From positions 1 to 40,026 of IMG/VR virus record IMGVR_UViG_3300043331_001462: a DNA stretch of 40,026 bases, one strand, 5' to 3'. The notes under the pieces are model-generated. The model did no database searches, had not been told where the DNA came from, and worked only from the letters and a program-made list of their open reading frames with translations. This DNA is from a virus. Shown here in pieces: positions 6,957 to 40,026 of the stretch. The stretch's first letter is position 1, and each line of letters starts with the position of its first letter. The position numbers and the translations under genes were made by a program.

Positions 6957-7020
6957 CGAACACGGTCACGATCACACACGCTTGCGCCAGCAGGTGGACT
7001 ATGCCCGCATCCAGACGACC

Positions 7021-7053
7021 ACGACGCCCCGCGGCCACAACGCGGGGCGTCGT
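7021..7053 (+). terminator. Perfect 13-bp-stem hairpin (7-nt loop)
   Basis: ACGACGCCCCGCG gccacaa CGCGGGGCGTCGT, in the non-coding stretch 6957..7188. The 14-bp palindrome AACGCCGCGGCGTT follows at 7077..7090. Confidence 0.5.
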
Positions 7054-7188
7054 GCTGTCCGGGACCGGGTGGCGTCAACGCCGCGGCGTTCCCTCCACAG
7101 ACGAGCTGGGGATACGTCGGGCGAAGGCGCGGCCACGACGGTACGCATTGGCCCGAGCCGCGACCTGCGCGACCCACCTGCGCACACC

Positions 7189-7467
7189 ATGGCCGGGCTG
7201 AAGGGCCGGCGCTGGGCGAACCTGTGCCAGCAGATCCGCCAGTCTTCCGACGTGCACGTGTGCCACTGGTGCCGCAGGATCATCGACCTCGACGCCGAGC
7301 CGCGCACGCGCTGGTCGTTCAGCGTGGACCACAAGGTGCCCAGGTCCAGGGGTGGTGCGCCGTACGAGCGCAGCAACCTGGCCACTGCGCACTACGGGTG
7401 CAACTCGAGCAAGGGCGCGAGGAGCATGAGCAGCAGGCCAAAGCGCATGTCGCGGGGCTGGCACTGA
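7189..7467 (+). CDS. HNH endonuclease (92 aa), terminase-associated position
   Basis: CHWCRR...DHKVPRSRGG...NLATAHYGCNSSKG. It sits immediately upstream of the terminase genes, as in HK97-like cos phages. Confidence 0.85.
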   Translation: MAGLKGRRWANLCQQIRQSSDVHVCHWCRRIIDLDAEPRTRWSFSVDHKVPRSRGGAPYERSNLATAHYGCNSSKGARSMSSRPKRMSRGWH

Positions 7468-7563: not shown

Positions 7564-8175
7564 ATGGTCGCAATGACGCAAGATCGGGTCACTCGGATCG
7601 ACGCGGCGATCAGCGATGTGATCGGTTCCCGGATCCGTGATCTGCGCGAATCGGCCGGTCTGTCGCGTGAGGACCTGGCCGTCGCCGCGCGCGAGGCCGG
7701 CGCGCCGGCGTCGCTGACCGGCACGGTCATCCGCTTCCTGGAGACCGGCCGGCCGGACAAGGACGGGCGGCGCACCCGCTACTTCGCCTTCGACGAGCTG
7801 CTCGGCGTGGCCGCCGGGCTCGAGGTGTCGCCGCTGGAGCTGCTCGGCGACCAGGCGGTGCACTTCGCCGGCGAGCAGGTCGCCGCCACGACGAGCTGCG
7901 CGAACTGCGGCGCCACGCCGGGCCCGGTCGAGACGACGGTGCGCACGGACCTGGCGCAGCTGGCCGCCGCCGAGCTGGAGCCCTCGCTGGCGCAGATCGC
8001 GTACGGGCTGGCCCGGGCCGTGGACGTCGCCGCGCTCGCCGGCGACGGCGCGCTGCCGCGGCTGACCCGCGAACTGCGGGCCTGCCTGGAGCAGATCGCC
8101 GCCGGCCGCCGCGGCCACGTCGACCCGGACCCGGACGCCGAAGACGAGCTCGACGGCCTTGACGAGCCGGACTGA
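7564..8175 (+). CDS. Terminase small subunit candidate with N-terminal XRE-type HTH
   Basis: Lies between the HNH gene and TerL. HTH segment is IGSRIRDLRESAGLSREDLAVAA. The C-terminal LTRELRACLEQI segment resembles actinophage TerS. Confidence 0.55.
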   Translation: MVAMTQDRVTRIDAAISDVIGSRIRDLRESAGLSREDLAVAAREAGAPASLTGTVIRFLETGRPDKDGRRTRYFAFDELLGVAAGLEVSPLELLGDQAVHFAGEQVAATTSCANCGATPGPVETTVRTDLAQLAAAELEPSLAQIAYGLARAVDVAALAGDGALPRLTRELRACLEQIAAGRRGHVDPDPDAEDELDGLDEPD

Positions 8176-9730
8176 AGACCGACGGCGGGCGGAGATCTAC
8201 GCCTCCTACGGCCTGACCTGCCCGCCCCGGTACGCCACCCTGCGCAACCCGGACCGGCCGACGTACGGCGGCAAGGTGGCCCGCATCGCCGCCAAGCTGG
8301 GTACCCCGCTGATGCCGTGGCAGCGCTACGTCGCCGACACCGCCCTGGAAATCGACCCGGCCACCGGCACGTTCGCCTACCGCAAGGTGGGCTGCACGGT
8401 GCCGCGGCAGTCCGGCAAGACCTCGCTGATCCTGCCGGTGGCCTGCCACCGCGGGATGGCCTGGCAGTCCCAGCGCATCCGCTACGCCGCCCAGTCCGGC
8501 ACCGAGGCCCGGCAGAAGTGGGAGGACGACCAGATCCCGCTGCTGGAGGCGGCCAAGTTCGTCCCGCAGCGGTGCCGCATCCGCAAGGCCAACGGCCGCG
8601 AGGCCATCATCTGGCGGGCCACCGGCAGCATCCACAGCCTGCACAACAACACCGAGAAGTCCGGCCACGGCAAGACCCTGCACCTGGGCCTGCTCGACGA
8701 GTACTTCGCCCAGGTCGACTACCGCATCTCGGCGGCCTGGTCCCCCGCGATGATCACCGTGGAGTCGGCGCAGTCGTGGTGGTTCTCCACCGCCGGCACC
8801 AGCAAGTCGGTGCCGATGAACACTGACCGGGAACGTGGCCGGAAGCTGGCCGAGTCCGGCGCGCCGACCCGCACCGCGTACTTCGACTGGTCGGCGCCTG
8901 AGGGTGCGGACTACACCGACCCGCGGGTGTGGCTGGGCTGCATGCCGGCGCTGTGCCCTCGCCCGCCGTGCCGCTGCTCCCCGCACTGGCGGCACACGGT
9001 CACCATTGACACGCTGCGCGCCGAGCTCGAGGACGCCCAGGGTGACGCGGCGCTCCTGGCGGAGTGGCTGCGGGCGTACATGAACTGGACGCTCGAGGAC
9101 GACGACGTCGAGGCCGACCCCAACGTGCCGACTCTGGCCGAGTGGGACCTGCTCGCCGACGACCGGGCGCCCAGCGGCGACGTGCTAGCCATCGGCGTCG
9201 ACGTGACCCCGCTGCGCGACCACGCCGCCATCGTCGCCGTCGGCGACGGCCCGGACGACGGCACCCCGCGGCTGGTGGTGCTCGACCACGGCGAGGGCGT
9301 CGCCTGGCTGATGCGCCGCATCCTCGAGCTGCGCGACGAGCTCAAGCCGGTGGCCTGGGTCATCGATGAGAAGTCCGGCGCCAACACGCTGCTGCAGCCG
9401 ATGGAGCAGGCCGGCCTGACCCGGATGGGTAAGGACCCGCACCGCGGCGGCGTCTGGGTACCCACCGTCCCCGAGCTGGGCGCGGCCTGCGCGTCGTTCA
9501 CCGACACCGTGCGCGCCGGCGGCCTGGTGCACCTCGGCCAGGACGAGATGACCCTGGCCCTCGCGGGCGCCCGCACCCGCCCGATCGGCGACGGATCCTG
9601 GGCCTGGGGTCGAAAGATCGCCTCCTCGGACATCTCGCCGCTGGTCAGCGGCTCGCTGGCGCTGGCCGCATTCACCCGGTTCCGGCACCTGGCCTTCGAC
9701 AACTACGACGCGGCCGACAACGTCTGGTGA
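8159..9730 (+). CDS. Terminase large subunit
   Basis: Walker A is VPRQSGKTS and Walker B is LHLGLLDEYF. It sits upstream of the portal gene. The start (TTG 8159) is uncertain. Confidence 0.9.
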   Translation: MTSRTEDRRRAEIYASYGLTCPPRYATLRNPDRPTYGGKVARIAAKLGTPLMPWQRYVADTALEIDPATGTFAYRKVGCTVPRQSGKTSLILPVACHRGMAWQSQRIRYAAQSGTEARQKWEDDQIPLLEAAKFVPQRCRIRKANGREAIIWRATGSIHSLHNNTEKSGHGKTLHLGLLDEYFAQVDYRISAAWSPAMITVESAQSWWFSTAGTSKSVPMNTDRERGRKLAESGAPTRTAYFDWSAPEGADYTDPRVWLGCMPALCPRPPCRCSPHWRHTVTIDTLRAELEDAQGDAALLAEWLRAYMNWTLEDDDVEADPNVPTLAEWDLLADDRAPSGDVLAIGVDVTPLRDHAAIVAVGDGPDDGTPRLVVLDHGEGVAWLMRRILELRDELKPVAWVIDEKSGANTLLQPMEQAGLTRMGKDPHRGGVWVPTVPELGAACASFTDTVRAGGLVHLGQDEMTLALAGARTRPIGDGSWAWGRKIASSDISPLVSGSLALAAFTRFRHLAFDNYDAADNVW

Positions 9731-9744
9731 GGGAGGTCACGCGC

Positions 9745-10980
9745 GTGGGTTTCTGGCGTGACCTGGGACGTCGGCTCAGCGGCAGAGAGAGGCGCTACAA
9801 CGGCTACTCGGCCAACTTCTCCAACCCGCCGATTCCGCCGCCCGGCGCCGGCGGCGCCTCGTTCTCCAGCATCGACCTGCGCCGCGCCGAGGCAAGCCTG
9901 CAGTCCGCCGCAGTGTGGTCCTCGACGAACCTGGTGGCCACCGTGCTGGCCAACCTGCCGTTGGACACCTACCGCCGCCAGCCCGACGGCACCGCCCAAC
10001 CCATCGACAACCCGCCGCTGGTCGATGACCCCGGCGGTGAGGGCTACGGCGCGGCGGACTGGCTCTACCAGTACCTGATGTGCCGGCAGCTGCGCGGCAA
10101 CGTCGTCGGGCAGCTGCTGGGCGCCGACCGGGCCACCGGACGCCCGACGCAGATCGTGCTGTACCACCCCGACGAGGCGTACGGCTGGCGCGACTACCAA
10201 GGCGTCCGGCACTGGACGGTCGCTGGCCGGGAGCTGAACGCGGCAGAAATGGCCACCTTGTTCCACCGCCGCGCGTACCCGATGCCCGGCTGCGTGATGG
10301 GAATGTCGCCGGTGGCGTACCACTTCGCCACGATCGGGCAGAACGTCGCCGCCACCCGGTTCGGCCTGCAGTTCTTCCTCGACTCCGGCCACCCGTCCTA
10401 CGTGTACCGCAACAGCCTGGAGGAGATCGACCAGACCAAGGCGGCGGCGGTCAAAGAGCGCGTCATGGCCACCACGTACGGCCGTCGCGAGCCGCTGGTC
10501 ATGGGCAAGGGCTGGGAGAAGCCCGAGCCGCTGCAGGTCAGCCCGGAGGACTCGCAGATGCTGGCCACCCAGGGCTACTCGGCCGCGGACTGCTGCCGGC
10601 TGTTCGGGCCCGGCCTGGCCGAGGTCCTCGGCTACGAGACCGGTGGCAGCCTGACCTACTCCACCCGGGTCGACCGGGCCACCGACCTGCTCACCTTCAC
10701 GTTCGACCCGCACCTGACCGACCTGGAGCGGATGTTCACCGCCCTGCTGCCGCCGCGGGAGTTCGTCCGCTTCAACCGGTCGGCGCTGCTGCGGATGACC
10801 ACCATGGAGCGCTGGCGGGTCTACCTGATGCAGCTGGCCACCAAGGCGCGCGTGATCAACGAGGTGCGCGACGACGAGGACTGGGCGCCGGTGCCCTGGG
10901 GCGACGAGCCGGTCGAGGTGGCCCCGATACCGGCCGGAGCCGGCGCAGACGACGGCAAGACGAAGGAGCCGCCGCGATGA
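9745..10980 (+). CDS. Portal protein (HK97 family)
   Basis: Position and size fit a portal. GTG 9745 lies 8 nt after GGGAGG, with an alternative GTG at 9727. An ATGA overlap joins it to the protease gene. Confidence 0.9.
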   Translation: MGFWRDLGRRLSGRERRYNGYSANFSNPPIPPPGAGGASFSSIDLRRAEASLQSAAVWSSTNLVATVLANLPLDTYRRQPDGTAQPIDNPPLVDDPGGEGYGAADWLYQYLMCRQLRGNVVGQLLGADRATGRPTQIVLYHPDEAYGWRDYQGVRHWTVAGRELNAAEMATLFHRRAYPMPGCVMGMSPVAYHFATIGQNVAATRFGLQFFLDSGHPSYVYRNSLEEIDQTKAAAVKERVMATTYGRREPLVMGKGWEKPEPLQVSPEDSQMLATQGYSAADCCRLFGPGLAEVLGYETGGSLTYSTRVDRATDLLTFTFDPHLTDLERMFTALLPPREFVRFNRSALLRMTTMERWRVYLMQLATKARVINEVRDDEDWAPVPWGDEPVEVAPIPAGAGADDGKTKEPPR

Positions 10981-11782: not shown

Positions 11783-13276
11783 ATGCTGGAGTTCCTGCGC
11801 AAGCAGCTGGAGCTGCTGCGCGAGAAGCGGGCCGCGCTGAAGGCCAACCTGGACGGCGTCATCGCCGCGCCCAAGGCCGAGCAGCGCGGCCTTAACGACG
11901 ACGAAAAGACCAAGCTGGCGGAGGGCACGGCCGAGCTGCGAAAGCTCGACGGCGAGATCGCCGACACGGCCCAGCAGCTTCAGGAGCTGACCGAGGCCGA
12001 GCAGCGCGACCAGGCCGCCGGGCAGGTCCTCGCCGCGGCCGGGCAGACCGGCCAGCAGCGTGAGCAGGGCGGCGCCCGCGTCGTCGAGCCGCTGACCTAC
12101 AGCCGCCACTCCGGGCAGTCGTACTTCCACGACCTGGCCAAGGGAACCCTGCGCGGCGACCAGGCGGCCCTGGAGCGGCTCAACCGGCACGCCGCCGAGC
12201 TGCGCGTCGAGCTGCCCGCCCGCGAGGTCCGCCGCGAGGCCCGCGCTCGCGCCCAGATGGACCAGATGGCGCTGGCCGAGCGATGGTCCGACCAGCAGCG
12301 TTCCTCGGCGTTCGAGACCCGGGTCAACCCCAACCGCACTGACGGGCAGGGTGGCTACTTCGTGCCGCCGCTGTGGCTGGTCGACGAGTACATCGAGCTG
12401 CCCAGGTTCGGGCGGCCGATCGCGAACGCGGTGCGCAACCTGGAGCTGCCCGGCGGCACCGACAGCATCAACCTGCCGAAGGTGTCCACCGGCACCGCCA
12501 CGGCGGCGCAGACCGCCGACGGCGCGTCGGTTACCTCCACCGACATGACCGACACCAGCGTGTCGGCGTCGGTGTACACCGTGGCCGGCCAGCAGGACGT
12601 CGCCATGCAGCTGCTCGACCAGTCGCCGGCGCCCGGCTTCGACACGGTCGTGTTCTCCGACCTGCTCGCCGACCTGGCGGTGCGCCAGGACGTGTACGTC
12701 ATCAACGGCTCGGGCTCCAACGGCCAGCCCACCGGCATCCTCAACGTCAGCTCGCCCAACGCCATCACCTACACCGACGCGGACCCGACGCTGCCGGAGA
12801 TGTGGGTGCCGTGGATCAAGTCGGTGTCGCAGATCGCCAGCAACCGCAAGATGCCGGCCACCGCGACCTTCGTCATTCCGGCCATCTGGTACTGGGCGGC
12901 CAGTCAGCTGGACACCACCAACCGTCCGCTGATCATCCCGGAGCAGGGCGGCCCGTTCAATCCGATGGCACTGCAGACCGGCGCCGAGGCCGAAGGGCCA
13001 GTCGGCCGGCTCACGGTCGGCACGCCGGTGATCCTCGACGGGAACATCCCGACCAACCTGGGCGGCGGCACCGAGACGCGCATCATCACCCTGCGCACGC
13101 CGGACCTGTACCTGTGGGAGGGCGCCATCCAGACCCGGGTGCTCACCGAGGTGCTCTCCGGCACCCTGCAGGTGCGCTTCCAGGTCTACCGGTACGCCGC
13201 GTTCATGGGTAACCGGCTGCCGAAGGCGATCTCGATCGTGTCCGGCACCGGCGTCATCCCGACGTCCGGATTCTGA
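11783..13276 (+). CDS. Major capsid protein (HK97 fold) with N-terminal coiled-coil delta domain
   Basis: ATG lies 5 nt after GAGAGGGGA. The first ~110 aa are E/K/L/Q-rich, followed by a capsid-like body. Position is immediately after the protease. Confidence 0.9.
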   Translation: MLEFLRKQLELLREKRAALKANLDGVIAAPKAEQRGLNDDEKTKLAEGTAELRKLDGEIADTAQQLQELTEAEQRDQAAGQVLAAAGQTGQQREQGGARVVEPLTYSRHSGQSYFHDLAKGTLRGDQAALERLNRHAAELRVELPAREVRREARARAQMDQMALAERWSDQQRSSAFETRVNPNRTDGQGGYFVPPLWLVDEYIELPRFGRPIANAVRNLELPGGTDSINLPKVSTGTATAAQTADGASVTSTDMTDTSVSASVYTVAGQQDVAMQLLDQSPAPGFDTVVFSDLLADLAVRQDVYVINGSGSNGQPTGILNVSSPNAITYTDADPTLPEMWVPWIKSVSQIASNRKMPATATFVIPAIWYWAASQLDTTNRPLIIPEQGGPFNPMALQTGAEAEGPVGRLTVGTPVILDGNIPTNLGGGTETRIITLRTPDLYLWEGAIQTRVLTEVLSGTLQVRFQVYRYAAFMGNRLPKAISIVSGTGVIPTSGF

Positions 13277-16601: not shown

Positions 16602-17597
16602 ATGGGCGTCCCCAGCGGTCTGGGCTCCAGCTTCGGGTTCGTGCCGGAGGTCACCTACGGCACGTACGTGGCCCCGACGAGGTGGATCGAGTGCTCGCAG
16701 CCGCAGCTGCGCAAGGTGAAGAACACTGTGCAGGGCGGGGCGATGGCCGCCGGCCGGTACGGCCGGCGCGGCTCCATGCGCAACGTGACCAGCAAGGCCG
16801 GCGGCGGCACCCTCACCACCGAGGTGTTCAACAAGCGGATGGGGCACCTGTTCAACGGGCTGCTCGGCGGCACCGTGACGCCCACCCAGCAGGGCTCCAC
16901 CGCCGCCTACCTGCAGACCCACACGCTGGGCGACTCGACCGGCAAGTTCTACACCATGCAGGTCGGCGTGCCGGATCTGGGCGGCACCGCCCGCCCGTAC
17001 ACCTTCCTCGGCTCGAAGATCACCGCCATCGAGTTCTCATGCGGCGTCGACGAGAACCTCACCGCGGCGGTCACCGTCGACGCCCGCGACGTCACCGAGG
17101 CCGAGACGTTGGCCGCGCCCAGCTACGCCACCGGCGTGGAGGTGTTCCACTTCGGCCAGATGGGCGTCAAGCTGGGCACCTACGACTCCGAGGCGGCCAT
17201 CCAGGGCGTACGGCGGATGACCCTGCGTATCGAGCGGCCGCACCGCACGGATCGGTTCTACGCCAACAACTCCGGCCTGAAGTCCGAGCCGGTAGTCAAC
17301 GACTACATCAACGTGTCCGGCACCATCGAGGCCGACTACATCACCAAGGCCGACCTGGCCGACCGGTTCGCCGCCGACACCTCCACCGCCTTGGTGTGGG
17401 AGTTCATCGGTCCGACCATCGAGTCGCCGCACACTGAGGTGTTCCGCATCCGCGTCCCGATGATCTTCCTGGATGGGGACACCCCCGCCGTGGACGGACC
17501 GGACGTGGTCACCGGCCCCTACAACTTCGTCGGCCTGGACGACGGCACCAACGCCCAGGTGTCGCTCATCTACATGTCCGCCGACACCACCCTGTAG
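16602..17597 (+). CDS. Major tail (tube) protein candidate
   Basis: 331 aa and beta-rich. RBS is GGAAGG. Lies upstream of the chaperone and tape-measure genes. Confidence 0.6.
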   Translation: MGVPSGLGSSFGFVPEVTYGTYVAPTRWIECSQPQLRKVKNTVQGGAMAAGRYGRRGSMRNVTSKAGGGTLTTEVFNKRMGHLFNGLLGGTVTPTQQGSTAAYLQTHTLGDSTGKFYTMQVGVPDLGGTARPYTFLGSKITAIEFSCGVDENLTAAVTVDARDVTEAETLAAPSYATGVEVFHFGQMGVKLGTYDSEAAIQGVRRMTLRIERPHRTDRFYANNSGLKSEPVVNDYINVSGTIEADYITKADLADRFAADTSTALVWEFIGPTIESPHTEVFRIRVPMIFLDGDTPAVDGPDVVTGPYNFVGLDDGTNAQVSLIYMSADTTL

Positions 17598-18614: not shown

Positions 18615-20633
18615 GTGGCCGAAGAGCTGCGGTACAAGTTCACCGGCGACGGCGGCTCGCTGGCCCGCACGTTGGCCGACACGGCCGACAAGGCCGACAA
18701 GGCCGGCGACGCGCTGGACGACCTGGCCGCCGACGCGGCCAAGCTCGACACCGAGATCGCCACCCTGCGCACCTCGATGCGCGACACCGCCCGCGACATC
18801 GCCCGCACCGCCGACGAGGCCGAACGCAAGAACCTGTTCAAGGTGCTGGCCCAGCAGAAGCGGCAGATGGGCCGGGTGGTCCGGGCCCGCGACCTGATCG
18901 ACTTCACGCCGGAGGAAGTCACCAAGCTCGGCGCGCGGATGGCCGCCGCGCTCGGCGAAGGTGTATCCCGCGCAGGCGGGCCGATCGCCGACGCGCTGGG
19001 CAATGTGTTCGGCGCGCTGCCCCCGCAGGCGCAGGCCGCGATCGGCGCCGGCGTCGTCGCCGCGGTCGCCGCCGCCGCGCCGGCCGCCGCCGCGGTCGTC
19101 ACCGGAGCCGTCTCCGGCGGTATCGCCGCCGGCGGTGTGGCCGCCGGGGTGGCCCTGGCCGCCCGCGACGCCCGGGTCAAGGCCGCCGCCGAAGGCCTGG
19201 GCGACACCATCCTGGACGCCCTGGCCCGCTCCGCCGCGCCGGCCTTCGTGCCTCCGGTGCTCGACGCCATCGCCACCATCCGGGTCGAGGTCCGCGACCT
19301 GGACGACGAGCTGGACGACATGTTCGGCGCCGCCGCCCGCAACGTCGACCCGTTCGTGCGAGGGCTGGTCGGCGGCGCGAAGGCCGCGCTGCCCGGCTTC
19401 ACGGAGGGCCTGGAACGCTCGCACGTGGCCGCTGAGGCCTTCGCCGACGGGATGATCGAACTAGGTGACGCCGTCGGCGACTCCATCGCCCTGATCTCGC
19501 AGGCATCCGCCGGCGGGGGGCAGGCCATCGAGGACCTGTTCGTCATCCTCGAGTTCGGCGTGCGCTCCATCTCCGCCATGATCACCGGGCTGACGTTCCT
19601 GTACGAGGCGCTGCGGTTCGTCACCGGCGGCGCGGCCGCCCAAACTGAGATCATCTCCAAGCATGCGGTCGCCGCGGCCGACGCCAAGAACCCGCTGGAC
19701 GGGCTGGCCGAGGCATTCCGGGGCATCGGCGAGGAGCAGGGTGAGGCCGCCGACACCGCCCGCGAGTTGGACGAAGCCTGGGACGACCTGTTCAACAACA
19801 CGATGTCCGCCGACCAGGCCCTCGTGCGCTACGAGGAGTCGTGGGACCGGCTGATCGAAGAGCTGAACACCGGCAAGAAGACTCTCGACCTGGGCACCGA
19901 GGCCGGCCGGAACAACATGAACGCGGTGCTAGACCAGATCGAGGCGATCAACGGGCTGCGTGAGGCGGGGCTGATCAACGATCAGCAGTACGAGGACCAC
20001 CTCGGAACGCTGCAGGCCACGCTGATCAAGCGCGGGTTCGAAGCCGCCGCGGTGCAGCGGATCATCGACAAGTATCGCAACATCCCGTCCCAGGTGCAGA
20101 CCCTGCTGAAGAACAACGCGGTGCCGGCGACGTCGCGGGTCGAGGAGTACATCCGCAAGCTCGGCGACATCCCCAGCACCCGCACCGTGACCATCATCCA
20201 GCGGCTGGTCCAGAAGGGTGTGCGCATCGCCGGGCTGACCGGCCCGGGCGGTGTCACCGCGTTCAGCAAGGGCGGCGTCGTCGAGGGCCCCGGGCCGCGC
20301 GGCGTCGACTCGGTCCCTGCGTTGCTGGCCCCGCGTGAAGGTGTGCTCACCGAGGCCGGGCTTGAGCGGCTCGGCGGCCCGCAGATGCTGCATGCCCTGA
20401 ACAAGGGCCTGCCGTTGCCGGCCTCGGCGCCAGCCCGATCGAGCGGTCCGCGCCCCCTGCTCGGCGCCCGGGCCACCACGAGCAGCGCCGATCTGACCGC
20501 GCTGGCGCAGGCGTTCGCCCGAGCGGTGCGCGACGAGCTGCGCGGCGTGCAGCTGGCCGTCAACGTCGACTCCCGGCGCGTGGGCGAGGCGCAGGCCAGC
20601 GACGGGTACCGCAAGGCCCGAGGAGAGCACTAA
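18615..20633 (+). CDS. Tape measure protein
   Basis: 672 aa, Ala/Gly-rich and helical. GTG follows GGGGAGGTGA. Position is canonical. Confidence 0.9.
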   Translation: MAEELRYKFTGDGGSLARTLADTADKADKAGDALDDLAADAAKLDTEIATLRTSMRDTARDIARTADEAERKNLFKVLAQQKRQMGRVVRARDLIDFTPEEVTKLGARMAAALGEGVSRAGGPIADALGNVFGALPPQAQAAIGAGVVAAVAAAAPAAAAVVTGAVSGGIAAGGVAAGVALAARDARVKAAAEGLGDTILDALARSAAPAFVPPVLDAIATIRVEVRDLDDELDDMFGAAARNVDPFVRGLVGGAKAALPGFTEGLERSHVAAEAFADGMIELGDAVGDSIALISQASAGGGQAIEDLFVILEFGVRSISAMITGLTFLYEALRFVTGGAAAQTEIISKHAVAAADAKNPLDGLAEAFRGIGEEQGEAADTARELDEAWDDLFNNTMSADQALVRYEESWDRLIEELNTGKKTLDLGTEAGRNNMNAVLDQIEAINGLREAGLINDQQYEDHLGTLQATLIKRGFEAAAVQRIIDKYRNIPSQVQTLLKNNAVPATSRVEEYIRKLGDIPSTRTVTIIQRLVQKGVRIAGLTGPGGVTAFSKGGVVEGPGPRGVDSVPALLAPREGVLTEAGLERLGGPQMLHALNKGLPLPASAPARSSGPRPLLGARATTSSADLTALAQAFARAVRDELRGVQLAVNVDSRRVGEAQASDGYRKARGEH

Positions 20634-26886: not shown

Positions 26887-27063
26887 TCACCGGGCGCGTC
26901 GAAGGTGGAGGCCGGCGCCGACCAGGACGAGGCCAGCGACCAGGTTGCCTGCGCCGATGACCAGAACGCCGAGCGTGCCGCCGAGGGAGGCACCCAGCGC
27001 CGTGAAGCCGGTGGCGCAGGTGAGGGCGGAGGTTGCGAGGCGGATGATCTGCGTCGTGTTCAT
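26887..27063 (-). CDS. Small Gly/Ala-rich 2-TM membrane protein (58 aa), not in the ORF track
   Basis: The ATG lies 5 nt after GGGAGGA. Sequence is MNTTQIIRLATSALTCATGFTALGASLGGTLGVLVIGAGNLVAGLVLVGAGLHLRRAR. First gene downstream of the operator region. Confidence 0.6.
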   Translation of the reverse strand: MNTTQIIRLATSALTCATGFTALGASLGGTLGVLVIGAGNLVAGLVLVGAGLHLRRAR

Positions 27064-27104: not shown

Positions 27105-27171
27105 CATTACCCTAGGGTGATAGATTCGTCAACACCCTAGGGTGTTCGGATTATGCCACCCTAGGGTAATG
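27105..27171. promoter_or_regulatory. Three palindromic operators ACCCTAGGGT in a divergent promoter region
   Basis: CATTACCCTAGGGTG (27105..27119), ACACCCTAGGGTGT (27132..27145) and CACCCTAGGGTAATG (27157..27171). The outer copies are mutual reverse complements. Centres are 25 and 24 bp apart. Each copy carries TAGGGT (TANNNT) on both strands. Confidence 0.75.
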
Positions 27172-27179
27172 TCTGGCTC

Positions 27180-27443
27180 ATGGATAAGAGTGCTGTGGAA
27201 CACCTCGCCAAGCAGATCGCTCGGCTGACCAAACTGGCCCCGATCGAGCGGGCCCGGCTGGCCCGCGACCTGGTCGACGTTGCGAAGACCACGCTGGCCG
27301 CGGCCGGCGACGCTGCCGTCGCCGAGGCGGTCGCTGGCAGCTCGTACGCCGAGGTCGCCGCGGCCTTGGGCGTGTCCACCTCGGCGGTCAACAAGGCGGT
27401 CAGCCGACACCGGGCTCGACCCGCCGTAGGCAGTGTGGACTAG
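27180..27443 (+). CDS. Small HTH regulator (87 aa), candidate operator-binding repressor
   Basis: C-terminal HTH is SYAEVAAALGVSTSAVNKAVSRH. The ATG lies only 12 nt downstream of a TAGGGT hexamer, so the mRNA would be near-leaderless. Confidence 0.7.
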   Translation: MDKSAVEHLAKQIARLTKLAPIERARLARDLVDVAKTTLAAAGDAAVAEAVAGSSYAEVAAALGVSTSAVNKAVSRHRARPAVGSVD

Positions 27444-27451
27444 CCACGCCC

Positions 27452-27736
27452 TCACTTCGACCGCGCATCCTCGTGCAGCACGTGCAGCTTGTTGAAGATC
27501 CACCGGCCGGTGCGCAGTCGGCGGCCGGTGCCCTTGCATCGCGGGCACCGGCGAAACGCCCGGCCGGTCGGCGAGCGCCGCTTGCCGCTGCCCGCGCACC
27601 GGCGGCAGTTCGCGTACGGCCAGAACCAGCAGGCGATCACGTAGCAGATCGCCCACGCCAGCCCGGCCACCGTCAGGTAGAAGGCGCCGCGGGTCGGGTC
27701 GCCCTGCTGTGTAGCGGTAGCGGCGCTCAACCACAC
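27452..27736 (-). CDS. Membrane protein with DnaJ-type CxxCxGxG zinc finger (94 aa)
   Basis: GTG lies 7 nt after AGGAGG. One TM helix is followed by CRRCAGSGKR...CPRCKGTGRR. Confidence 0.7.
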   Translation of the reverse strand: MWLSAATATQQGDPTRGAFYLTVAGLAWAICYVIACWFWPYANCRRCAGSGKRRSPTGRAFRRCPRCKGTGRRLRTGRWIFNKLHVLHEDARSK

Positions 27737-27881
27737 CGGATGTGCCTCCTGACGGGGGTAGCGGGCCTGCCTGCCGGCGTGCCGCTACGCGCTACACGGC
27801 CGCGTCGGCGCAGGTCAGCGTGCGCGCAGGCCGTAGCGGGGGCTGTAGCGCAGCCGCTACGCCTACCTCGGTGTCCGCTAC
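27711..27881. promoter_or_regulatory. Candidate clt-like locus: 9 copies of GTAGCG/CGCTAC
   Basis: GTAGCG at 27711, 27717, 27758, 27833 and 27844. CGCTAC at 27783, 27790, 27855 and 27876. Lies directly downstream of the translocase gene stop (27888). Confidence 0.55.
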
Positions 27882-27887
27882 ACCGAT

Positions 27888-30041
27888 TCATCGATCCTCC
27901 TCGCTGGTTCGACGCTCCAGTGCGCGGCGCAGCGCGGCCAGATGCACGCCCTTGAGGACCTTGTTGTCGATGCGGACGTTCTTGCTCTCGATGCCCAGGT
28001 TCAGCGAGCGCAGCGTGTTGGAGATCGCGTCCGGGGTGGCGTTGGCGTACCGCTCGGGCAGCTGGTCGGCCATGCGCTCGGCCAGCTGCTGCCACGACAG
28101 AGCGGTCTCGGACGGCAGGAACGCATCGAGAGCATCCGCGAGCGGATCGCGTGCCTGCGCGCCGACCGTCTCGCCGCCGGCCATGCCGTCGAGCAGGCCG
28201 GCCCGCTCGCGCATCCGGCGCGCGGCGTGCAGGATCTTCTCGGCGTCCTGCCCGTCGGCCAGGTAGGTGCGCACGGTGGCGTTGGGCACCGGGGCGTCGT
28301 AGAGGATGCCGACGCCGCGGTACTCGTCGCCGGAGGGCAGCGCGCTGGAGTCGTAGCCCTCGGAGTAGGCGCCGCCACCGAGCACCAGGTCAGAGACCTG
28401 CCAGGCGCCCGTCTTGAGCGCAAAGCGGGTCAGGTGGTTGTCGCGGAAGTCCGTGAACAGCTTGGCCACCTTGCCGGTGGAGCCGATCCCAGACGGACGC
28501 TGAGTGGAGTCCAGCAGGATGACGCCGACCGACGGCCCGACCTTGACCAGGAAGACCAGCAGCTCGGCGATCTCCCGGTCGGTCTCCTCGTCGCCGGTGT
28601 TCAGGTACTCCTGGAACTCATCCAGGACGATCACCCAGACGGGCATGCGGTAGCGCGGGTTGCGGGCGATGTCCCTGGTCAGCTTGCCTTCCGGGCACAC
28701 GTCGGTGGGCAGCTCGGACAGGCGGGCGTTGCGCTGCAGGACGTCGCGCTTGGCGGCGCGCAGGGTGGCGCGCAGGTTCTCGATCGGATCGCCCTGGATC
28801 CGGTCGGGCAACAGCCCGAAGCCGAAGGTGTAGGCGACCAGGGCGAACTTGCGCCAGTCCGGGGAGCCCTTGCCGTCGAACACGGACAGCCGCACGTACG
28901 GATCGAGGGCGGCGAAAAGCGCCAGCAGGCGGGCGGTGAACGTCTTGCCCTTGCGCGGCTGCGCGCCGACCAGCACAGAAGTGAAGATCAGCGGCAGCAT
29001 GACGCGGCGGCCGCGCTCGTCGACGCCCAGCGGCGCGGCCCGCCAGATGTCGCGCGGCTTGCAGTCCAGCAGCGGCGTACGGCCGGCCGGGATGGACAGC
29101 GGGTCGACGTCGGCGACCCACAGCAGGTGCCGGCGCTGGGAGGTCTTGTCCCTGGTCAGGTACACCTGGGACAGCGACACGTCCAGGCCGGAGGCCAGCT
29201 TCTCGCGGGCCTTCATCGCGTCGGAGAACGTCACCCCGTACGGCAGGTCGACCACCACCTGCGATCCTGCGTCGAGCCGGTCGCGGGACATCTTCGACCC
29301 GAACTTGACCTGCTGGCCGGGCTTGTCCGGGTGGCCCAGGCCGGCGGAGTAGTACGCGCGCAGCACCACGTCGGCGTTGAGCACCCGGTGCCGGTTGGTG
29401 ACCACCGCGGCGGACACGATCGGCCGGTCGGCCGGTCGGCCCAGGTGCGCCAGGATCGGCACCAGGACCACCAGGACGACCCACTTCACCCAGCCCGGCG
29501 CGCCCAGCAGCAGCCACGCCACCGCGCCGACCAGGACCAGGACCTCGAGCGCCAACCACACGCCGCGGGCGCCGCGCGCCCGGCGGGCCTCAGTGTGCAG
29601 CTTCACCCACGTCTCGGCGTCGTTCTTGGTCGCCGCGTGCTGGCGCAAGCTGTGCGACTCCATCACCCAGTACCAGGCCAGCTGCCGGCCGGCCAGGCGC
29701 AGCAGCCCGACCACCGCCCACCACGCGGCCAGCAGCAGGTACAGCGGCGAGCGCACGGCGTGGTAGCTGAACCGGTAGCCGGTCAGCTTGGCCGTACGTA
29801 CGCCCGCGCGGCGTACGCCCTGCACGGTGCGCAGGTGCTCCGGGATGACCGGCCGCCGGTCCTGGCGCACCTTGGCCACCGAGTCGACCAGCACCGGCGT
29901 GGCCGGGCCCGGATCGTCGTCCAGGGCGACCTCGAAGCTGGTGTCGTACTCCTCCGGCAACGCCTCCGGTCGCGGCGTCACCTCGCCTGTGTCGGCGGCC
30001 GGCACGGCCACCTCGCGGCCAGGCTCGATCGGCTCGGTCAT
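27888..30041 (-). CDS. FtsK/SpoIIIE-family DNA translocase, TraB-like (717 aa)
   Basis: N-terminal TM helices are present. Walker A is GAQPRKGKT and Walker B is VWVIVLDEFQ. The C-terminus is wHTH-like. ATG 30041 follows AGGGGGCGG, and the longer ORF runs to 30122. Confidence 0.9.
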   Translation of the reverse strand: MTEPIEPGREVAVPAADTGEVTPRPEALPEEYDTSFEVALDDDPGPATPVLVDSVAKVRQDRRPVIPEHLRTVQGVRRAGVRTAKLTGYRFSYHAVRSPLYLLLAAWWAVVGLLRLAGRQLAWYWVMESHSLRQHAATKNDAETWVKLHTEARRARGARGVWLALEVLVLVGAVAWLLLGAPGWVKWVVLVVLVPILAHLGRPADRPIVSAAVVTNRHRVLNADVVLRAYYSAGLGHPDKPGQQVKFGSKMSRDRLDAGSQVVVDLPYGVTFSDAMKAREKLASGLDVSLSQVYLTRDKTSQRRHLLWVADVDPLSIPAGRTPLLDCKPRDIWRAAPLGVDERGRRVMLPLIFTSVLVGAQPRKGKTFTARLLALFAALDPYVRLSVFDGKGSPDWRKFALVAYTFGFGLLPDRIQGDPIENLRATLRAAKRDVLQRNARLSELPTDVCPEGKLTRDIARNPRYRMPVWVIVLDEFQEYLNTGDEETDREIAELLVFLVKVGPSVGVILLDSTQRPSGIGSTGKVAKLFTDFRDNHLTRFALKTGAWQVSDLVLGGGAYSEGYDSSALPSGDEYRGVGILYDAPVPNATVRTYLADGQDAEKILHAARRMRERAGLLDGMAGGETVGAQARDPLADALDAFLPSETALSWQQLAERMADQLPERYANATPDAISNTLRSLNLGIESKNVRIDNKVLKGVHLAALRRALERRTSEEDR

Positions 30042-30217
30042 GACCGCCCCCTGGCCGCGCCCTTGACCGCAGCGAAGCCCAGGTGCACCTGAGCCGGCAG
30101 CAGCAGCAGATCGGGCCGCCACTGGCTACCGGCCTCGGCGTCGGCCAGCAGCTTTGCGGCCGTCTGGGTGTGCTCGTCGGCGGTCATCGCCAGGATCTGC
30201 TCAACGTGTTCGTTCAC
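30038..30217 (-). CDS. Hypothetical small protein (59 aa), not in the ORF track
   Basis: GTG lies 5 nt after GAGGTGA. It has 4-nt overlaps with both neighbouring genes (GTGA and ATGA). Confidence 0.5.
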   Translation of the reverse strand: MNEHVEQILAMTADEHTQTAAKLLADAEAGSQWRPDLLLLPAQVHLGFAAVKGAARGRS

Positions 30218-31020
30218 GGGGTCACCTCGGTCAGGTCCGGGACGTGGCCGTTGACCGGCGTGGCCGGCCGCGTCGCGGCCAGATGGCGGCGCGCGGTGCG
30301 CTCGGACACGGACAGCCGCTTGGCCACGGTGGCCGCGTCGATGGCCGGGTCCTTGGCCACCAACTTGGCCACCAACTTGGCCGTGTCCGTGGCCACCGGT
30401 GGCCGGACAGGTGGCCGCAGCTTGGCCGGCTCGATGGCCACGTGGCCATCCATGGCCACAGGCTCAGATGGCCGCTCGATGGCCACGTGGCCATCCATGG
30501 CCACAGGCTCAGATGGCCGCTCGATGGCCGCGGGCGTGGCCGCGGTGACCGCCGCAGGCGCGGTGTCCGTGGCCACATGGCCGGCCACCGGCTCGCGGTC
30601 CACTGGCCGCCGCCGGCGACTGGTGGCGATTAGCGCGCCCGTGGCCATCACCATCAGGCCGTCGACCGCGAGCGGGCCGATCAACACCGTCAGTCGGTCG
30701 TCGTTGTAGAAGGCCAGCAGCCCGGACAGATGCCGGTACGACACGACGGCGGCAACCCCGGCGACCGGCAGCAGCCCAGCGAAGCGCAGCAGAACCCAGC
30801 GCCTGCCAGCTGGCCATTCGGTCCGCGCAAAGATCTCCACCGCGACGAACAGGGCGAGGGGCCAGAACACGGCACCTACGACCGCGCCGGCCGGGGGCTG
30901 CCATCCGTCCGGCGCGTCATTCGGGGGGACGTACGAGTGGGCCACGTTGGCCGCGATCGACGCCGCGCCACCTAGGAGCGCTCCGAGGTACGCCCATCCT
31001 CGGCCGGTCACGCGGGTCAC
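30214..31020 (-). CDS. DUF2637-like membrane protein with repeat linker and C-terminal HTH
   Basis: VVSYRHLSGLLAFYNDDRLTVLIGPLAVDGLMVMA matches the remembered DUF2637 pattern. The C-terminal HTH is VAKRLSVSERTARRHL. Confidence 0.7.
   Translation of the reverse strand: MTRVTGRGWAYLGALLGGAASIAANVAHSYVPPNDAPDGWQPPAGAVVGAVFWPLALFVAVEIFARTEWPAGRRWVLLRFAGLLPVAGVAAVVSYRHLSGLLAFYNDDRLTVLIGPLAVDGLMVMATGALIATSRRRRPVDREPVAGHVATDTAPAAVTAATPAAIERPSEPVAMDGHVAIERPSEPVAMDGHVAIEPAKLRPPVRPPVATDTAKLVAKLVAKDPAIDAATVAKRLSVSERTARRHLAATRPATPVNGHVPDLTEVTP
30430..30530. repeat. 45-bp tandem repeat x2.2 inside the DUF2637-like gene
   Basis: CTCGATGGCCACGTGGCCATCCATGGCCACAGGCTCAGATGGCCG at 30430..30474 and 30475..30519, plus a partial copy. 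It encodes IERPSEPVAMDGHVA twice. Confidence 0.9.
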
Positions 31021-31639: not shown

Positions 31640-32548
31640 TCAATCATCCCAAAGAGACGCACCCCGCGTCCGGCCATGGCCGGACGCGGGGGTGCATTCT
31701 GTGTGTGCGTGTGTCCTGCAGAGGGCTACGCGACGGCGGGGAGCGTGCGGACGGCTAGTCGACGCTCCTCGCTGCTCACCTGGGTGTACCGCTCCGTCGT
31801 GTGCGATCGACGCGTGACCGAGAATCTCCTGCGTCGCGCGCAGGTTGCGCGAGCGGCGGTACGTCTCGCTGCCGCACCAGTGCCGCAGCATGTGCATCGT
31901 CACGTCTCGGAAGCCGAGCCGGGTCAGCTGGCGGCTGCCGTACATCGACAGCTTGTGCGCAGCCACGTGCGGCTCGTACCCCGGCAGGTGGAAGATCCGA
32001 CCGAGCGGCAGCGGCTCGACGAGGTGCCAGACCACCGGGTGCGTAGGCACCTCGCGCACCTTGTCGCCCTTGCCGCGGATCCACATCGACTCTTCGGTGA
32101 CGTCCTCCCGATCTAGGGTGACGATCTCCAGGCAGCGCAGGCCGGCGTACGCCGCGAGCCCGAAGTACGTCCGGTAGGGCGCCACCGCACGCCGCATGAT
32201 CTGGCCCAAGGCGGCGGTCGTCACCGGCCGCGGCGGAGGCTTCGGCACCCGGATGCGCGGCAGGCCGACGGACGGGTCCTGGTCGACCAGGCCCATCGTG
32301 AACTTCCACCGGCACCAGGCCTGGATGTGGAACAGGTACACGGCCCTGGTCGCGCGAGACAGACCAGGACGGGCCAGCCAGCTGGCCAGCCGTTGTGTCG
32401 TGGTTGCAGCGGGGTCGGTCCCCAGATACGTCGAAATGGCCCGGACCACTCGGGTCCGCGCCTGGATCGTTCTGGGTGACTGCCCTGCCGCTCGGAGGTG
32501 CTCTACGTGCACAGTCAGGTGCTCGGGAGCACAGCGAAGGGCTTCCAT
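31640..32548 (-). CDS. int: Tyrosine recombinase / integrase, apparently frameshifted before the catalytic Tyr
   Basis: RGKGDKVREVP, HMLRHW and LGHASIA lie in the main frame. The canonical continuation TTERYTQVSSEERRLAVRTLPAVA* lies in another frame (stop 31726..31728) after one extra nt near 31799..31804. Confidence 0.8.
   Translation of the reverse strand: MEALRCAPEHLTVHVEHLRAAGQSPRTIQARTRVVRAISTYLGTDPAATTTQRLASWLARPGLSRATRAVYLFHIQAWCRWKFTMGLVDQDPSVGLPRIRVPKPPPRPVTTAALGQIMRRAVAPYRTYFGLAAYAGLRCLEIVTLDREDVTEESMWIRGKGDKVREVPTHPVVWHLVEPLPLGRIFHLPGYEPHVAAHKLSMYGSRQLTRLGFRDVTMHMLRHWCGSETYRRSRNLRATQEILGHASIAHDGAVHPGEQRGASTSRPHAPRRRVALCRTHAHTECTPASGHGRTRGASLWDD
31660..31694. terminator. Bidirectional hairpin between convergent genes
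   Basis: CACCCCGCGTCCGGCC at GGCCGGACGCGGGG(G)TG, about 16-bp stem. Followed by a TG-rich tract at 31699..31714. Confidence 0.65.
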
Positions 32549-35372: not shown

Positions 35373-35872
35373 TGCCGCGCGAGCCTGTCCCGTACGAGCT
35401 CCTGGTCGCCGTCGCGCTGCTGGCTGTATGCGTCGTCGCGGCCCTGTGGGCCGGCGTGTGGAACCTGCGCCGGGCCAGCCAACCCACCATCGCCGACCGT
35501 GACGTGCAGCAGCGCATCGCCGGCCGCGCCGCCGTGGTCCTGCCCGCCGGGCCGCCGCCGCAGCCGCCGGCCAAACCGGTGTTCCCCGCCGGCCCGCCAG
35601 CCGCGCCGTTCCCCGCCGGCGCCGACCAGCACACGCCGGTCTGGCTAGCCGACGACACCGCCGACCGCCGCGAGGTCCTGGCCCACCGCCTGGTCCGGCC
35701 CCTCGACCGCACCGTCGAGGGCTACCTGGTCCGCGACGGCGACCGCGAGTACGGCTGGAAGACGGAAGCAGGGCTGGCCATAGCGACCCGCAACGTGCGC
35801 TTCTGCGCCCGGTGTTGGCCGCCAATCCCGGTGATGCCCGGCCACACCCTGCCTCGCCGGCGGCCGTCATGA
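35372..35872 (+). CDS. Membrane-anchored Pro-rich protein (166 aa)
   Basis: TGATG overlap, following AGGAGG. The N-terminal TM segment is LLVAVALLAVCVVAALWAGVW. Confidence 0.6.
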   Translation: MPREPVPYELLVAVALLAVCVVAALWAGVWNLRRASQPTIADRDVQQRIAGRAAVVLPAGPPPQPPAKPVFPAGPPAAPFPAGADQHTPVWLADDTADRREVLAHRLVRPLDRTVEGYLVRDGDREYGWKTEAGLAIATRNVRFCARCWPPIPVMPGHTLPRRRPS

Positions 35873-37251
35873 TCCTGCACAGCAGGCACCGCTTGAACGG
35901 TCACCGGCCGGCCGCCGGCGTCAGCTGGCTGCGGCTGACCCTGCTGGTGTTCGCGCCGGCCGCCGCGGTGACCGCCCTCTACGTCGGCCGGGTACACCTG
36001 GTGTGGCTGGTCTCGGCCTACGGGGCGCTGTCGCTGACCCGGGTGGCCGCCCAGTCCTGGATGGCCGCCCGCGTGCGCCGCCGCGTCCAGCCGCTGATCG
36101 GCCGGCCAATGGTGTCCATCGTCGTCGCGACCCTCAACCCCGACCCGGACCGGTTCGAGGAGGCGATCGCCTCCCTGGCCGGGCAGGACTGGCCGGCCGA
36201 CCGCCTCGAGGTCATCGTGGTCGACGACGGCTCCGACAGCCCGCACCTGGTCAGCCAGGTATGCAAGCGGCACGGCGCCCGCTACGTCTACCAGGCCAAC
36301 GCCGGCAAACGCCACGCCATGCACCGCGCGTTCGGCATGCTGCACCCGGCCACCAGGTACGTGCTCACCGGCGACGACGACACGGTTTGGCATCGCGACG
36401 CCACCCGCCACCTGGTCGCCGCCCTGCAACGCGACCGGGTCGGCGCCACCACCGGCCACGTCGCGACCCTCAACCCCGACGACACCTGGCTGACCCGGGT
36501 CACCGCCATCCGCTACTGGGTGGCCTTCCAGATCGAACGCGCCGCCCAGTCCTACTACGGCGCCGTCACCTGCGTGTCCGGCCCACTGGGCGGCTACCGC
36601 CGCTACCTGATCGACCAGATCGGCGACGACTTCGTCAACCAGCGGTTCCTGCGCCGCCCGTGCACCTTCGGCGACGACCGGCACCTGACCAACCTCGTGC
36701 TGGCCCGCGGCTACCAGGTCACCTACAGCCGCGCCCAGGCGTGGACCGAGGTGCCCGGCCGCATGCGCAAATACCTCAAGCAGCAGAAACGCTGGGGCAA
36801 GTCGCACTGGCGGGAGATGATCTGGACCGCCAAGGCGCTGCCGCTGCACTCGCCGATGCTGGCCGCCGACTGGGCGCTGACCCTGCTCCTGCCGTTCCTG
36901 CTGGTCGCCTCCATGGCCTGGTACGCCTGGTCGGCCGTCACCGACAGCCCGCTCTACCTGGCCGGCTTCGCCGCCATGGTCGTCGCCATGTCGATCGTGC
37001 GTGCCGTCCCCGCCGTGGTGGCCACCCGCGACCCGTCCTTCCTGTGGTGGATGCCGTTTTTCAGCGTGTTCCACCTGTTCGTGCTGCTGCCGCTGAAGTT
37101 CGTCTCGCTCGTCACGGTGGCTGATGGCAGCTGGGGCACCCGCGCCATCGGCGCGCCAGCCCAGCGGGTGTTCGAGCTGCATGAGGCGGCCACCGAGGAG
37201 TTCGCCCGCATCCCCGTCCAGCGCACCCCGGAGGCCACCGATGTCCGCTGA
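35869..37251 (+). CDS. Processive family-2 glycosyltransferase, HasA/NodC-like (hyaluronan/chitin-oligosaccharide synthase-like)
   Basis: Motifs VSIVVATLNP, VIVVDDGSD, LTGDDDTVW, VSGPLGGYRR, FGDDRHLTN and YLKQQKRWGKSHWRE, plus N- and C-terminal TM helices. ATGA-coupled start, with the ORF open from 35812. Confidence 0.88.
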   Translation: MILHSRHRLNGHRPAAGVSWLRLTLLVFAPAAAVTALYVGRVHLVWLVSAYGALSLTRVAAQSWMAARVRRRVQPLIGRPMVSIVVATLNPDPDRFEEAIASLAGQDWPADRLEVIVVDDGSDSPHLVSQVCKRHGARYVYQANAGKRHAMHRAFGMLHPATRYVLTGDDDTVWHRDATRHLVAALQRDRVGATTGHVATLNPDDTWLTRVTAIRYWVAFQIERAAQSYYGAVTCVSGPLGGYRRYLIDQIGDDFVNQRFLRRPCTFGDDRHLTNLVLARGYQVTYSRAQAWTEVPGRMRKYLKQQKRWGKSHWREMIWTAKALPLHSPMLAADWALTLLLPFLLVASMAWYAWSAVTDSPLYLAGFAAMVVAMSIVRAVPAVVATRDPSFLWWMPFFSVFHLFVLLPLKFVSLVTVADGSWGTRAIGAPAQRVFELHEAATEEFARIPVQRTPEATDVR

Positions 37252-39929: not shown

Positions 39930-40026
39930 CCCATGCCTAGAGATCAATCCCGCCGCGCTCGTGACCGCCGCTACGCGGCCGCAGTGGACCGGCAGATCAA
40001 CGCCATCGCGATCAGCGAGGCGACCG
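39930..40026. repeat. Terminal direct repeat, copy 2 (contains the truncated duplicate start of the gene at 4..342, ATG 39933)
   Basis: Identical to 1..97. Confidence 0.95.

Follow-up and report, generated by a model that had tools for sequence, protein, structure and literature searches.

The stretch analysed here (the window) is the whole of the 40,026-nt IMG/VR virus record IMGVR_UViG_3300043331_001462, and the locus under study is a dense array of short repeats directly downstream of a gene for a putative TraB-type, FtsK-like double-stranded DNA (dsDNA) translocase. The translocase gene occupies positions 27888-30041 of the minus strand and encodes 717 amino acids counted from its ATG, as determined from the translation and an independent gene call. 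The array spans 27711-27881 and features nine copies of the hexamer GTAGCG or its complement CGCTAC within 171 bp, a count first made by a reading of the letters without database searches (the sequence-only reading) and confirmed by direct recount. Read on the plus strand, GTAGCG begins at 27711, 27717, 27758, 27833 and 27845, and CGCTAC at 27783, 27790, 27855 and 27876; eight of these starts agree with the earlier ones, and the ninth, formerly placed at 27844, is corrected to 27845, position 27844 being the first letter of TGTAGCG. Most copies had been said to extend to 7-mers, and eight of the nine do so, either as GTAGCGG/CCGCTAC or as GTAGCGC/GCGCTAC. The pair GTAGCG-cagc-CGCTAC described at that time is present at 27845-27860. 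The array lies, as also reported before, between the translocase stop (27888-27890) and the GTG start of the next gene (27736), both of which are backed by independent gene calls, and it runs into the first codons of that gene, with 27711-27723 forming codons 5-9. The gap from stop to start is 151 nt and the copies span 6 to 177 nt past the stop.

The window has a G+C content of 71% and contains 38 copies of GTAGCG/CGCTAC versus 22.0 ± 4.7 in dinucleotide shuffles. These copies are unevenly distributed and are concentrated in the array. The 29 copies outside it give an expectation of 0.124 per 171 bp, close to the value of about 0.1 estimated earlier, and the nine observed correspond to a Poisson P(≥9) of 1.8e-14. 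When every hexamer was scanned at every position in 100 Markov-1 simulations, the maximum was 7 copies in 171 bp. Of the 27 background plus-strand CGCTAC copies, 23 are in-frame CGC TAC (Arg-Tyr) codons of plus-strand genes, so the background copies are a coding by-product, and the array is the sole non-coding GTAGCG cluster in the window. A polarity of CCGCTAC (15:0 outside the array) resembling that of the FtsK orienting polar sequences (KOPS) was considered and rejected, as Arg-Tyr codons of the coding strand account for it.

Direct reading of the window and an alignment of 17 loci, extending to 52% protein identity, reveal a fixed syntax. In the sense of the translocase gene, the stop is followed by R1 forward, 7 nt, R2 reverse, the dinucleotide cg, R3 forward, 4 nt, R4 reverse, 6-7 nt, R5 reverse, a non-repeat centre, R6 and R7 as a forward tandem, a stretch of ~45 nt that holds a ribosome-binding site and a start codon, and R8 and R9 as a reverse tandem inside the next gene. 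In the window, R1 (GTAGCGG in translocase sense, 27875-27881, minus strand) lies 6 nt past the stop in a conserved block of alignment columns, and R3 (GTAGCGG, 27854-27860, minus strand) forms a dyad with R4 (27845-27851, plus strand) across 4 nt. R5 is found at 27833-27839 (plus strand), the tandem R6 and R7, GTAGCGcGTAGCGG in translocase sense, at 27782-27795 (minus strand), and the tandem R8 and R9, CGCTACCGCTAC in translocase sense, at 27711-27723 (plus strand), where it encodes the peptide A-A-T-A-T in codons 5-9 of the downstream gene. That peptide is missing where the array has another word or place, so the constraint on R8 and R9 acts on the DNA. The invariant centre of the window, TGACCTGCGC (27809-27818, minus strand), is not a repeat copy and is common to arrays with different words. 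The window departs from the general syntax in two ways. R2 has decayed to the degenerate copy GGTAGG (27862-27867, minus strand) at the site of the inverted R2 (CCGCTAC) of relatives, and the canonical R2 is missing both here and in the 90%-identical relative L003. In addition, there is an extra, lineage-specific copy at 27758-27764 (plus strand), which has become CGCGAC by mutation in L003; it lies just upstream of the Shine-Dalgarno sequence AGGAGG of the downstream gene (27745-27750, minus strand), itself kept in relatives. The degenerate copy and the centre had been overlooked by the sequence-only reading, and the 8-bp repeat unit that it cited for Streptomyces plasmids does not fit this locus, whose unit is 6-7 bp in a fixed syntax of inverted and tandem copies and not simply in direct repeats.

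The gene upstream of the array is well supported as that of a divergent TraB-type translocase with a predicted C-terminal winged helix. Its motor comprises residues ~220-614 with a Walker A motif GAQPRKGKT and a Walker B motif VLDEF, and its N-terminal part forms long helices (residues ~73-201 in the AlphaFold2 (AF2) model) with hydrophobic stretches visible in the translation. The AF2 model (mean predicted local distance difference test (pLDDT) score 84) best matches FtsK motors, with 2IUT at an E-value of 1.4e-14 and a template modelling (TM) score of 0.62 on the target, then 6T8B and 2IUS, followed by TcpA and EccC. The protein matches PHROG_1358 (FtsK/SpoIIIE-like) at 1.6e-17. An hhalign comparison of the family profile with TraB of plasmid pSVH1 gave a probability of 99.7%, an E-value of 1e-26 and 418 aligned columns, and the match runs from the motor to residue 767 of the 772 residues of pSVH1 TraB, including the C-terminal domain. 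In a tblastn search, traB of pSG5 and of pSVH1 were recovered at 4e-22 and 3e-18 with ~31% identity. A sequence search of the PDB gave no match, and the Pfam and NCBIfam searches did not detect PF01580 and returned a weak EccC match alone, which is no usable family call. The winged helix, the proposed reader of the repeats, is encoded at 27894-28145 (minus strand, residues ~633-716) and is modelled with a pLDDT of ~90 and the topology H-b-H-H-H-b-b-H; its top Foldseek matches in the PDB are all winged-helix domains, at E-values of at least 0.05. More than 1,300 homologues of the translocase were found. No call to PF01580 (FtsK_SpoIIIE) occurs among the 120 homologues listed, and pSVH1 TraB does receive one. 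PF01580 is the Tra marker in surveys of integrative and conjugative elements of actinomycetes (AICEs) (PMC3218068), and surveys keyed on it would overlook this clade. Two homologues of ~1,070-1,090 amino acids (P0019 and P0056) carry PF14528 (LAGLIDADG) and are apparently intein-containing motors.

About 55 non-redundant loci with the translocase were gathered from metagenome contigs, genomes, 31 IMG/VR viral contigs and plasmids. The genome loci come from Actinoplanes, Dactylosporangium, Longispora, Phytohabitans, Frankia and Pseudofrankia, with single loci from Plantactinospora and Micromonospora; in Micromonospora taraxaci the translocase gene lies in a prophage, between tail/holin genes and a serine integrase. 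The module is hosted by many actinomycete prophages, by AICE-like plasmids such as the 18.4-kb translocase-carrying plasmid of Streptomyces sp. NBC_00562, and by pPaSha2 of Pseudonocardia alni (L064, CP052773.1). The latter is a 41.9-kb circular record that was deposited as a plasmid and encodes a terminase, portal, protease, capsid, holin, Bet and integrase, a complete phage-like genome; it features a DUF2637-translocase-zinc-ribbon module with a GTAGCG array and is a cultivable system carrying the module. The sequence-only reading had looked to conservation of the array in relatives that keep the translocase, and arrays are found in close and distant ones, with the repeats fixed and the spacers drifting. 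Between the window and L003, the repeats differ at 1 of 42 positions and the spacers at 28 of 109 (Fisher p = 4.7e-4). Conservation across the 17-locus alignment is 0.97 in repeat columns versus 0.63 in the other columns. In the region from -60 to +260 of the translocase stop, some hexamer occurs at least five times in 51 of 55 loci and at least seven times in 35; the control segments have a mean of 3.8 and a 95th percentile of 6.

The array is independent of the downstream gene, because in L022 the whole array is inverted and in pPaSha2 it follows the zinc-ribbon gene, which itself begins 24 nt after the translocase gene. These arrangements bear on the idea that the repeats are an operator, on which the translocase or another protein of the element would act as a repressor controlling the zinc-ribbon gene or read-through from the translocase gene. 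The placement of the GTAGCG class of arrays is suggestive of such a function, since they frame the Shine-Dalgarno sequence with a tandem ~45 nt before the start and an inverted tandem in codons 5-10. However, the GTTCCG class of arrays stops before the ribosome-binding site, a sigma-70-like promoter was looked for at the locus and not found, and the regulators differ among loci that share a word, with an XRE protein here and GntR proteins in L030 and L031. Given these differing regulators, the array placement in pPaSha2 and the inversion in L022, an operator is quite improbable as the main role of the array.

In other lineages the same position and syntax are occupied by another word in every copy. 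The word is GTCGCG in L036, L038, L044 and L016, GTTCCG in L006, L015 and L047, and GTGCCGCG in L049-L052; further words are GTTGCG, GTCACT, GTTACC and GTAGGT, and the NBC_00562 plasmid uses ATAGCG with the same syntax. The concerted switching of all copies points to a co-evolving, sequence-specific protein. It also bears on an explanation at the level of RNA, in which stem-loops would terminate, attenuate or stabilise the translocase transcript. R3 and R4 do form GTAGCG-4nt-CGCTAC, and the minimum-free-energy fold allows pairing of R6-R7 with R8-R9, but the folding energy is ordinary (z = -0.66, with 43 of 200 shuffles folding as well), and at the locus there is neither a T-tract terminator nor an Rfam match. 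All stems share one word and the copies change together between lineages, neither of which is needed for folding, and compensatory changes with differing words between the two arms were not seen. The module is moreover present in either orientation relative to transcription. A function in RNA folding is therefore only a very faint prospect.

The basis of the word switching is revealed by three metagenome contigs, L006, L008 and L016. Their motors are 96-100% identical and their zinc-ribbon proteins 70-78% identical, whereas their winged helices are just 46-52% identical and their arrays use three different words. Aligned as DNA, L006 and L008 share 95-100% identity as far as -360 of the stop, are unrelated (~45%) from -120 to +170 and return to 75-100% identity from +177. 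This profile delimits the swapped cassette to the coding end of the winged helix plus the array and nothing else. The exchanged cassette measures ~500 bp and the three contigs are mosaics. Each of the three winged helices has its likeness in elements whose motor is distant and whose word is identical or almost so. The winged helix of L006 is 62-65% identical to those of L015 and L047, which share its word, with motors that are 51-53% identical. That of L008 is 90% identical to the winged helix of L041 (motors 56%), and that of L016 is 88% identical to the winged helix of L056 (motors 52%), with words one base apart. The cassette swaps tie the winged helix to the word and leave the motor and the downstream gene untied, which suggests that word specificity would evolve by exchange of a small cassette of winged helix and array. 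Across the whole set of loci, the association of word with winged helix has a residual difference of 0.03 (permutation p = 0.003).

The delimited cassette also bears on the suggestion that the repeats are replication-origin iterons or arm-type sites of attP, which would be bound by an initiator or by an integrase/excisionase instead of the translocase. Short, element-specific repeat clusters are typical of origins, and RepAM of pMEA300 binds 8-bp repeats (PMC2440964). The replication and integration genes vary among the elements, however, with a tyrosine integrase in the window, a serine integrase in L031 and prim-pol/YfjI genes in the NBC_00562 plasmid. Origin iterons or attP arms do not fit because the array stays with the translocase gene whatever these genes are, and the cassette that was exchanged comprises the winged-helix coding end and the array only; this explanation is accordingly hard to credit.

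The centre links the array to Streptomyces plasmids. Its general form is TGACCTGCG, extended (C)TGACCTGCG(N)AAA, and TGACC[AT]GC is present from -60 to +300 of the stop in 33 of 55 loci, whatever their word, versus 0.13 expected per 360 bp. It is also found downstream of traB in pSVH1, pSG5 and pFP11, and further in a linear plasmid of S. albidoflavus, in Amycolatopsis pXL100 and in a plasmid of S. decoyicus. About 40 loci besides the window have this centre at the corresponding place. Where arrays are inverted, the centre flips along with them. This flipping, together with a spacing to the next repeat that varies from 6 to 17 nt, led to the rejection of the centre as a -35 box. It was also rejected as the sps palindrome of SpdA, which has a different sequence, CGTCACGTGACG (PMC4170104). 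A full-text literature search for the centre sequence returned unrelated primers only.

In pSVH1, the 8-mer GACCCGGA occurs four times in direct and once in inverted orientation within ~130 bp after traB, and these repeats are followed by CTGACCTGCGCAAAC, in longer form CTCTGACCTGCGCAAAC. We take this 8-mer to be the TraB recognition sequence that Vogelmann et al. (2011) reportedly described for pSVH1; the analysis itself shows only that it is repeated. The layout downstream of traB is the same in pSG5 and pFP11. With this layout and the same centre, the array of the window is architecturally homologous to the plasmid region for which binding of TraB was demonstrated (PMC4447253, PMC3583192). 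The likeness to pSVH1 comprises translocases that are homologous through motor and winged helix, a cluster of short words in direct and inverted copies that begins a few bases past the stop, and the centre CTGACCTGCG inside the repeat cluster. In contrast, the word here is GTAGCG(G), of 6-7 bp, and not GACCCGGA, the syntax of dyads and tandems is rigid and extends into the downstream gene, the translocase has diverged too far to be detected by PF01580, and the host is a tailed phage, pSVH1 being a 12.6-kb rolling-circle plasmid. The clt regions of such plasmids contain short repeats that are bound by TraB via helix alpha-3 of the winged helix-turn-helix at its C-terminus (PMC4447253, PMC3583192). 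The clt of pWTY27 consists of 16 bp of the traA 3' end plus 159 bp and features 7-bp direct repeats and inverted repeats, and binding of TraA to it was shown by electrophoretic mobility shift assay and footprinting (PMC3583192). By this published description it covers ~175 bp at and past the 3' end of the tra gene, like the 171-bp array, and differs in its word, TGACACC.

The enrichment, the conservation, the concerted change of words, the homology to TraB and to the plasmid regions and the coupling of winged helix to word all point to the array being quite likely the clt, the site recognised in cis by the TraB-type translocase that is encoded just upstream. The same proposal had been made by the sequence-only reading, whose suggested computational checks all turned out in its favour, and TraB homology, plasmid-like layout, conservation and cassette swaps speak for it. 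Winged helices at the C-termini of a hexameric motor would read the 6-7-bp word GTAGCG(G), set out in the order single copy, dyad, another single copy, centre TGACCTGCG, tandem and, spanning the next start, an inverted tandem. Binding would assemble the ring on this one DNA molecule, presumably with loading at the centre, and the motor could then drive dsDNA across a membrane or septum. Since the module belongs to a complete genome of a temperate tailed phage, what is moved would be that phage or prophage genome. Besides producing virions, the element may in this way pass between hyphae as a plasmid does, or spread or segregate inside the mycelium.

Several observations weigh against this assignment. 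The global association of word and winged helix is modest, at the difference and p value given above, with phylogeny only partly controlled. GTAGCG goes with very different wing sequences, and L056 and L016 have winged helices that are 88% identical with words that differ; no residue-to-base recognition code emerged from the alignment of winged helices, in which several unrelated wing types share GTAGCG. The arrays are weak or unclear in L024, L027, L035, L048 and L059. The structural matches of the winged helix are weak, and the FtsK gamma domain falls outside the top 50. Finally, in this lineage repeats lie on both sides of the ribosome-binding site and start codon of the downstream gene, and the array may also have a regulatory role.

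The same recognition site may alternatively serve segregation, with the motor clearing or pumping copies of a phage-plasmid across cross-walls or sporulation septa and the array acting as a centromere-like site, or as a site like KOPS or the SpoIIIE recognition sequences (SRS), so that every compartment or spore inherits the element. The motor is FtsK-like, the same module is present in pPaSha2, a 42-kb circular extrachromosomal record, and the structural neighbours of the winged helix include the plasmid segregation protein TubR. A different protein-site pair, SpdA2/sps of pIJ101, affects segregational stability (PMC4170104). With FtsK gamma/KOPS and SpoIIIE/SRS the locus shares the predicted combination of a hexameric dsDNA pump of FtsK fold and a winged helix at its C-terminus by which a short word is read. 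However, KOPS and SRS are dispersed, polar guide words of the chromosome and KOPS guidance uses many such polarised copies, whereas here there is one dense cluster in both orientations, with the other copies being coding by-products, and the 50 best structural matches of the winged-helix model do not include the FtsK gamma domain. In addition, the module is also found in an AICE-like 18-kb plasmid with an integrase, and the closest characterised relatives, TraB of pSVH1 and pSG5, serve intermycelial transfer and spreading (PMC4447253). Segregation as the actual job of the site is unlikely, although it has more in its favour than the other alternatives, and the clt of a transfer-type motor is the preferred assignment.

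The gene downstream of the array (27452-27736, minus strand, identified by gene call) encodes a basic protein of 94 amino acids with one hydrophobic, putatively transmembrane stretch and a double CxxC zinc ribbon, which has a weak DnaJ_CXXCXGXG match. It is a conserved partner of the translocase, lying downstream in most relatives and in plasmids, and such a gene nearly always comes after that of the translocase, also on replicons of Streptomyces, Pseudonocardia and Nonomuraea. A longer, zinc-ribbon-rich basic protein stands in for the 94-residue type in more distant phage clades (L049-L054, L058), and the zinc-ribbon subtype is independent of the repeat word. Upstream in the module, a DUF2637-like membrane protein with a C-terminal HTH_11 domain is encoded at 30214-30870 (minus strand). 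DUF2637 genes likewise precede the translocase gene in pPaSha2, the NBC_00562 plasmid, pFP11 and the S. albidoflavus plasmid. The translocase gene and a small zinc-ribbon gene, sometimes with an upstream DUF2637 gene, are all that the loci have in common around the array.

The DUF2637/HTH gene holds the densest hexamer cluster of the window, with GGCCAC/GTGGCC 13 times in 171 bp (30261-30600, minus strand). Within it, a 45-bp unit recurs 2.4 times (30423-30529) and a 12-bp unit 2.6 times (30352-30382). It is shared by L003, a related CGGCCA cluster is present in L031, and it is missing in most relatives. A second cis site at this position was considered and is the less likely reading, as the cluster is lineage-specific and coincides with tandem duplications in the coding region; it is probably a repetitive linker peptide. 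On the other side of the zinc-ribbon gene, the 10-bp palindrome ACCCTAGGGT occurs in three perfect copies (27109-27118, 27134-27143 and 27158-27167, at spacings of 25 and 24 bp) in the AT-richer gap between the divergent genes 26887-27063 (minus strand) and 27180-27443 (plus strand). About 0.5 chance matches are expected for it, and the arrangement looks like a group of operators serving divergent promoters.

The first 97 bases of the window (1-97) are identical to the last 97 (39930-40026), so that the record is a closed unit of ~39.9 kb. It encodes the terminase large subunit TerL (8159-9730, E 1.2e-63), a portal protein (9727-10980, E 1.9e-34), a major head protein (11783-13276, E 1.5e-50), a minor tail protein (16602-17597, E 2.3e-25), a tape-measure-like protein (18615-20633) and a tyrosine recombinase, the integrase (31640-32341, minus strand), which lies 3.8 kb from the array. 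On this gene content the element is a complete temperate tailed phage and not a plasmid, because the contig closes and terminase, portal, capsid, tail proteins and integrase are all represented. The element also encodes a membrane glycosyltransferase of the GT2/chitin-synthase-like type, an Eco57I-type DNA methyltransferase and two HNH endonucleases (35869-37251, 679-2052, 4772-5857 and 6826-7467, all on the plus strand). The terminase is only ~33% identical to that of any deposited phage, and neither the translocase nor the zinc-ribbon protein had a tblastn match among 50,697 deposited phage genomes. A blastn search of the locus against plasmids returned nothing useful.

AICEs pair an integrase and Tra with a replication initiator of plasmid type and lack virion genes. 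The element has Int and Tra together with a full virion module, and the open reading frames covered by the Pfam scan yielded no RepSA, RepAM or Prim-Pol, so that it does not classify as an AICE. The NBC_00562 plasmid resembles it in its DUF2637 gene, translocase gene, array (ATAGCG, same syntax) and zinc-ribbon gene. That plasmid has the typical AICE content of GntR, NUDIX, prim-pol and integrase, in contrast to the full virion module and lack of a recognisable AICE replication gene in the window. Phage structural genes and plasmid-type functions are also combined in one element in pZL12/PhiZL12 of Streptomyces and PhiNon1 of Nonomuraea. The window differs from these in being ~40 kb with an integrase and in its distance from known phages (terminase ~33%). 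Papers that cite pZL12 describe it as requiring a major tra gene for conjugal transfer (PMC3583192, PMC5431353), and in the literature consulted, where pZL12 is known through such citing papers, no clt is described for it. Plasmid-phages such as pZL12 are, as far as these citing papers describe them, a precedent for the present element (PMC5431353, PMC3583192). New here are the word with its syntax, a centre that is shared, a cassette that can be exchanged, a translocase clade that escapes PF01580 and the presence of the module in complete tailed-phage genomes.

The centre is conserved across the TraB family, including the model plasmids, and is a candidate for the point at which the motor is loaded. 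Exchanged cassettes offer natural variants in specificity, ready for use in working out how DNA is read by TraB. To our knowledge, TraB/clt conjugation has been described for a handful of Streptomyces plasmids, and we know of no clt defined for AICEs such as pSAM2. A large TraB-like clade that is invisible to Pfam has delimited clt-like arrays, and its cognate sites would therefore be predictable from sequence alone. Among Micromonosporaceae, Pseudonocardiaceae, Streptosporangiales and Frankia, the module is carried by complete tailed-phage genomes and by prophages. A broader proposal, put forward tentatively and with more doubt than confidence, is that a widespread set of temperate tailed phages from mycelial actinomycetes combines virions with TraB/clt-driven transfer of the phage dsDNA between hyphae or inside them, that the specificity of this transfer resides in an exchangeable cassette and that TGACCTGCG is a common loading point of TraB motors. 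If this is true, such viruses may have a virion-free route of movement as well, and the boundary that separates phages from conjugative elements in filamentous bacteria would become less sharp, which would be relevant to gene flow among antibiotic producers.

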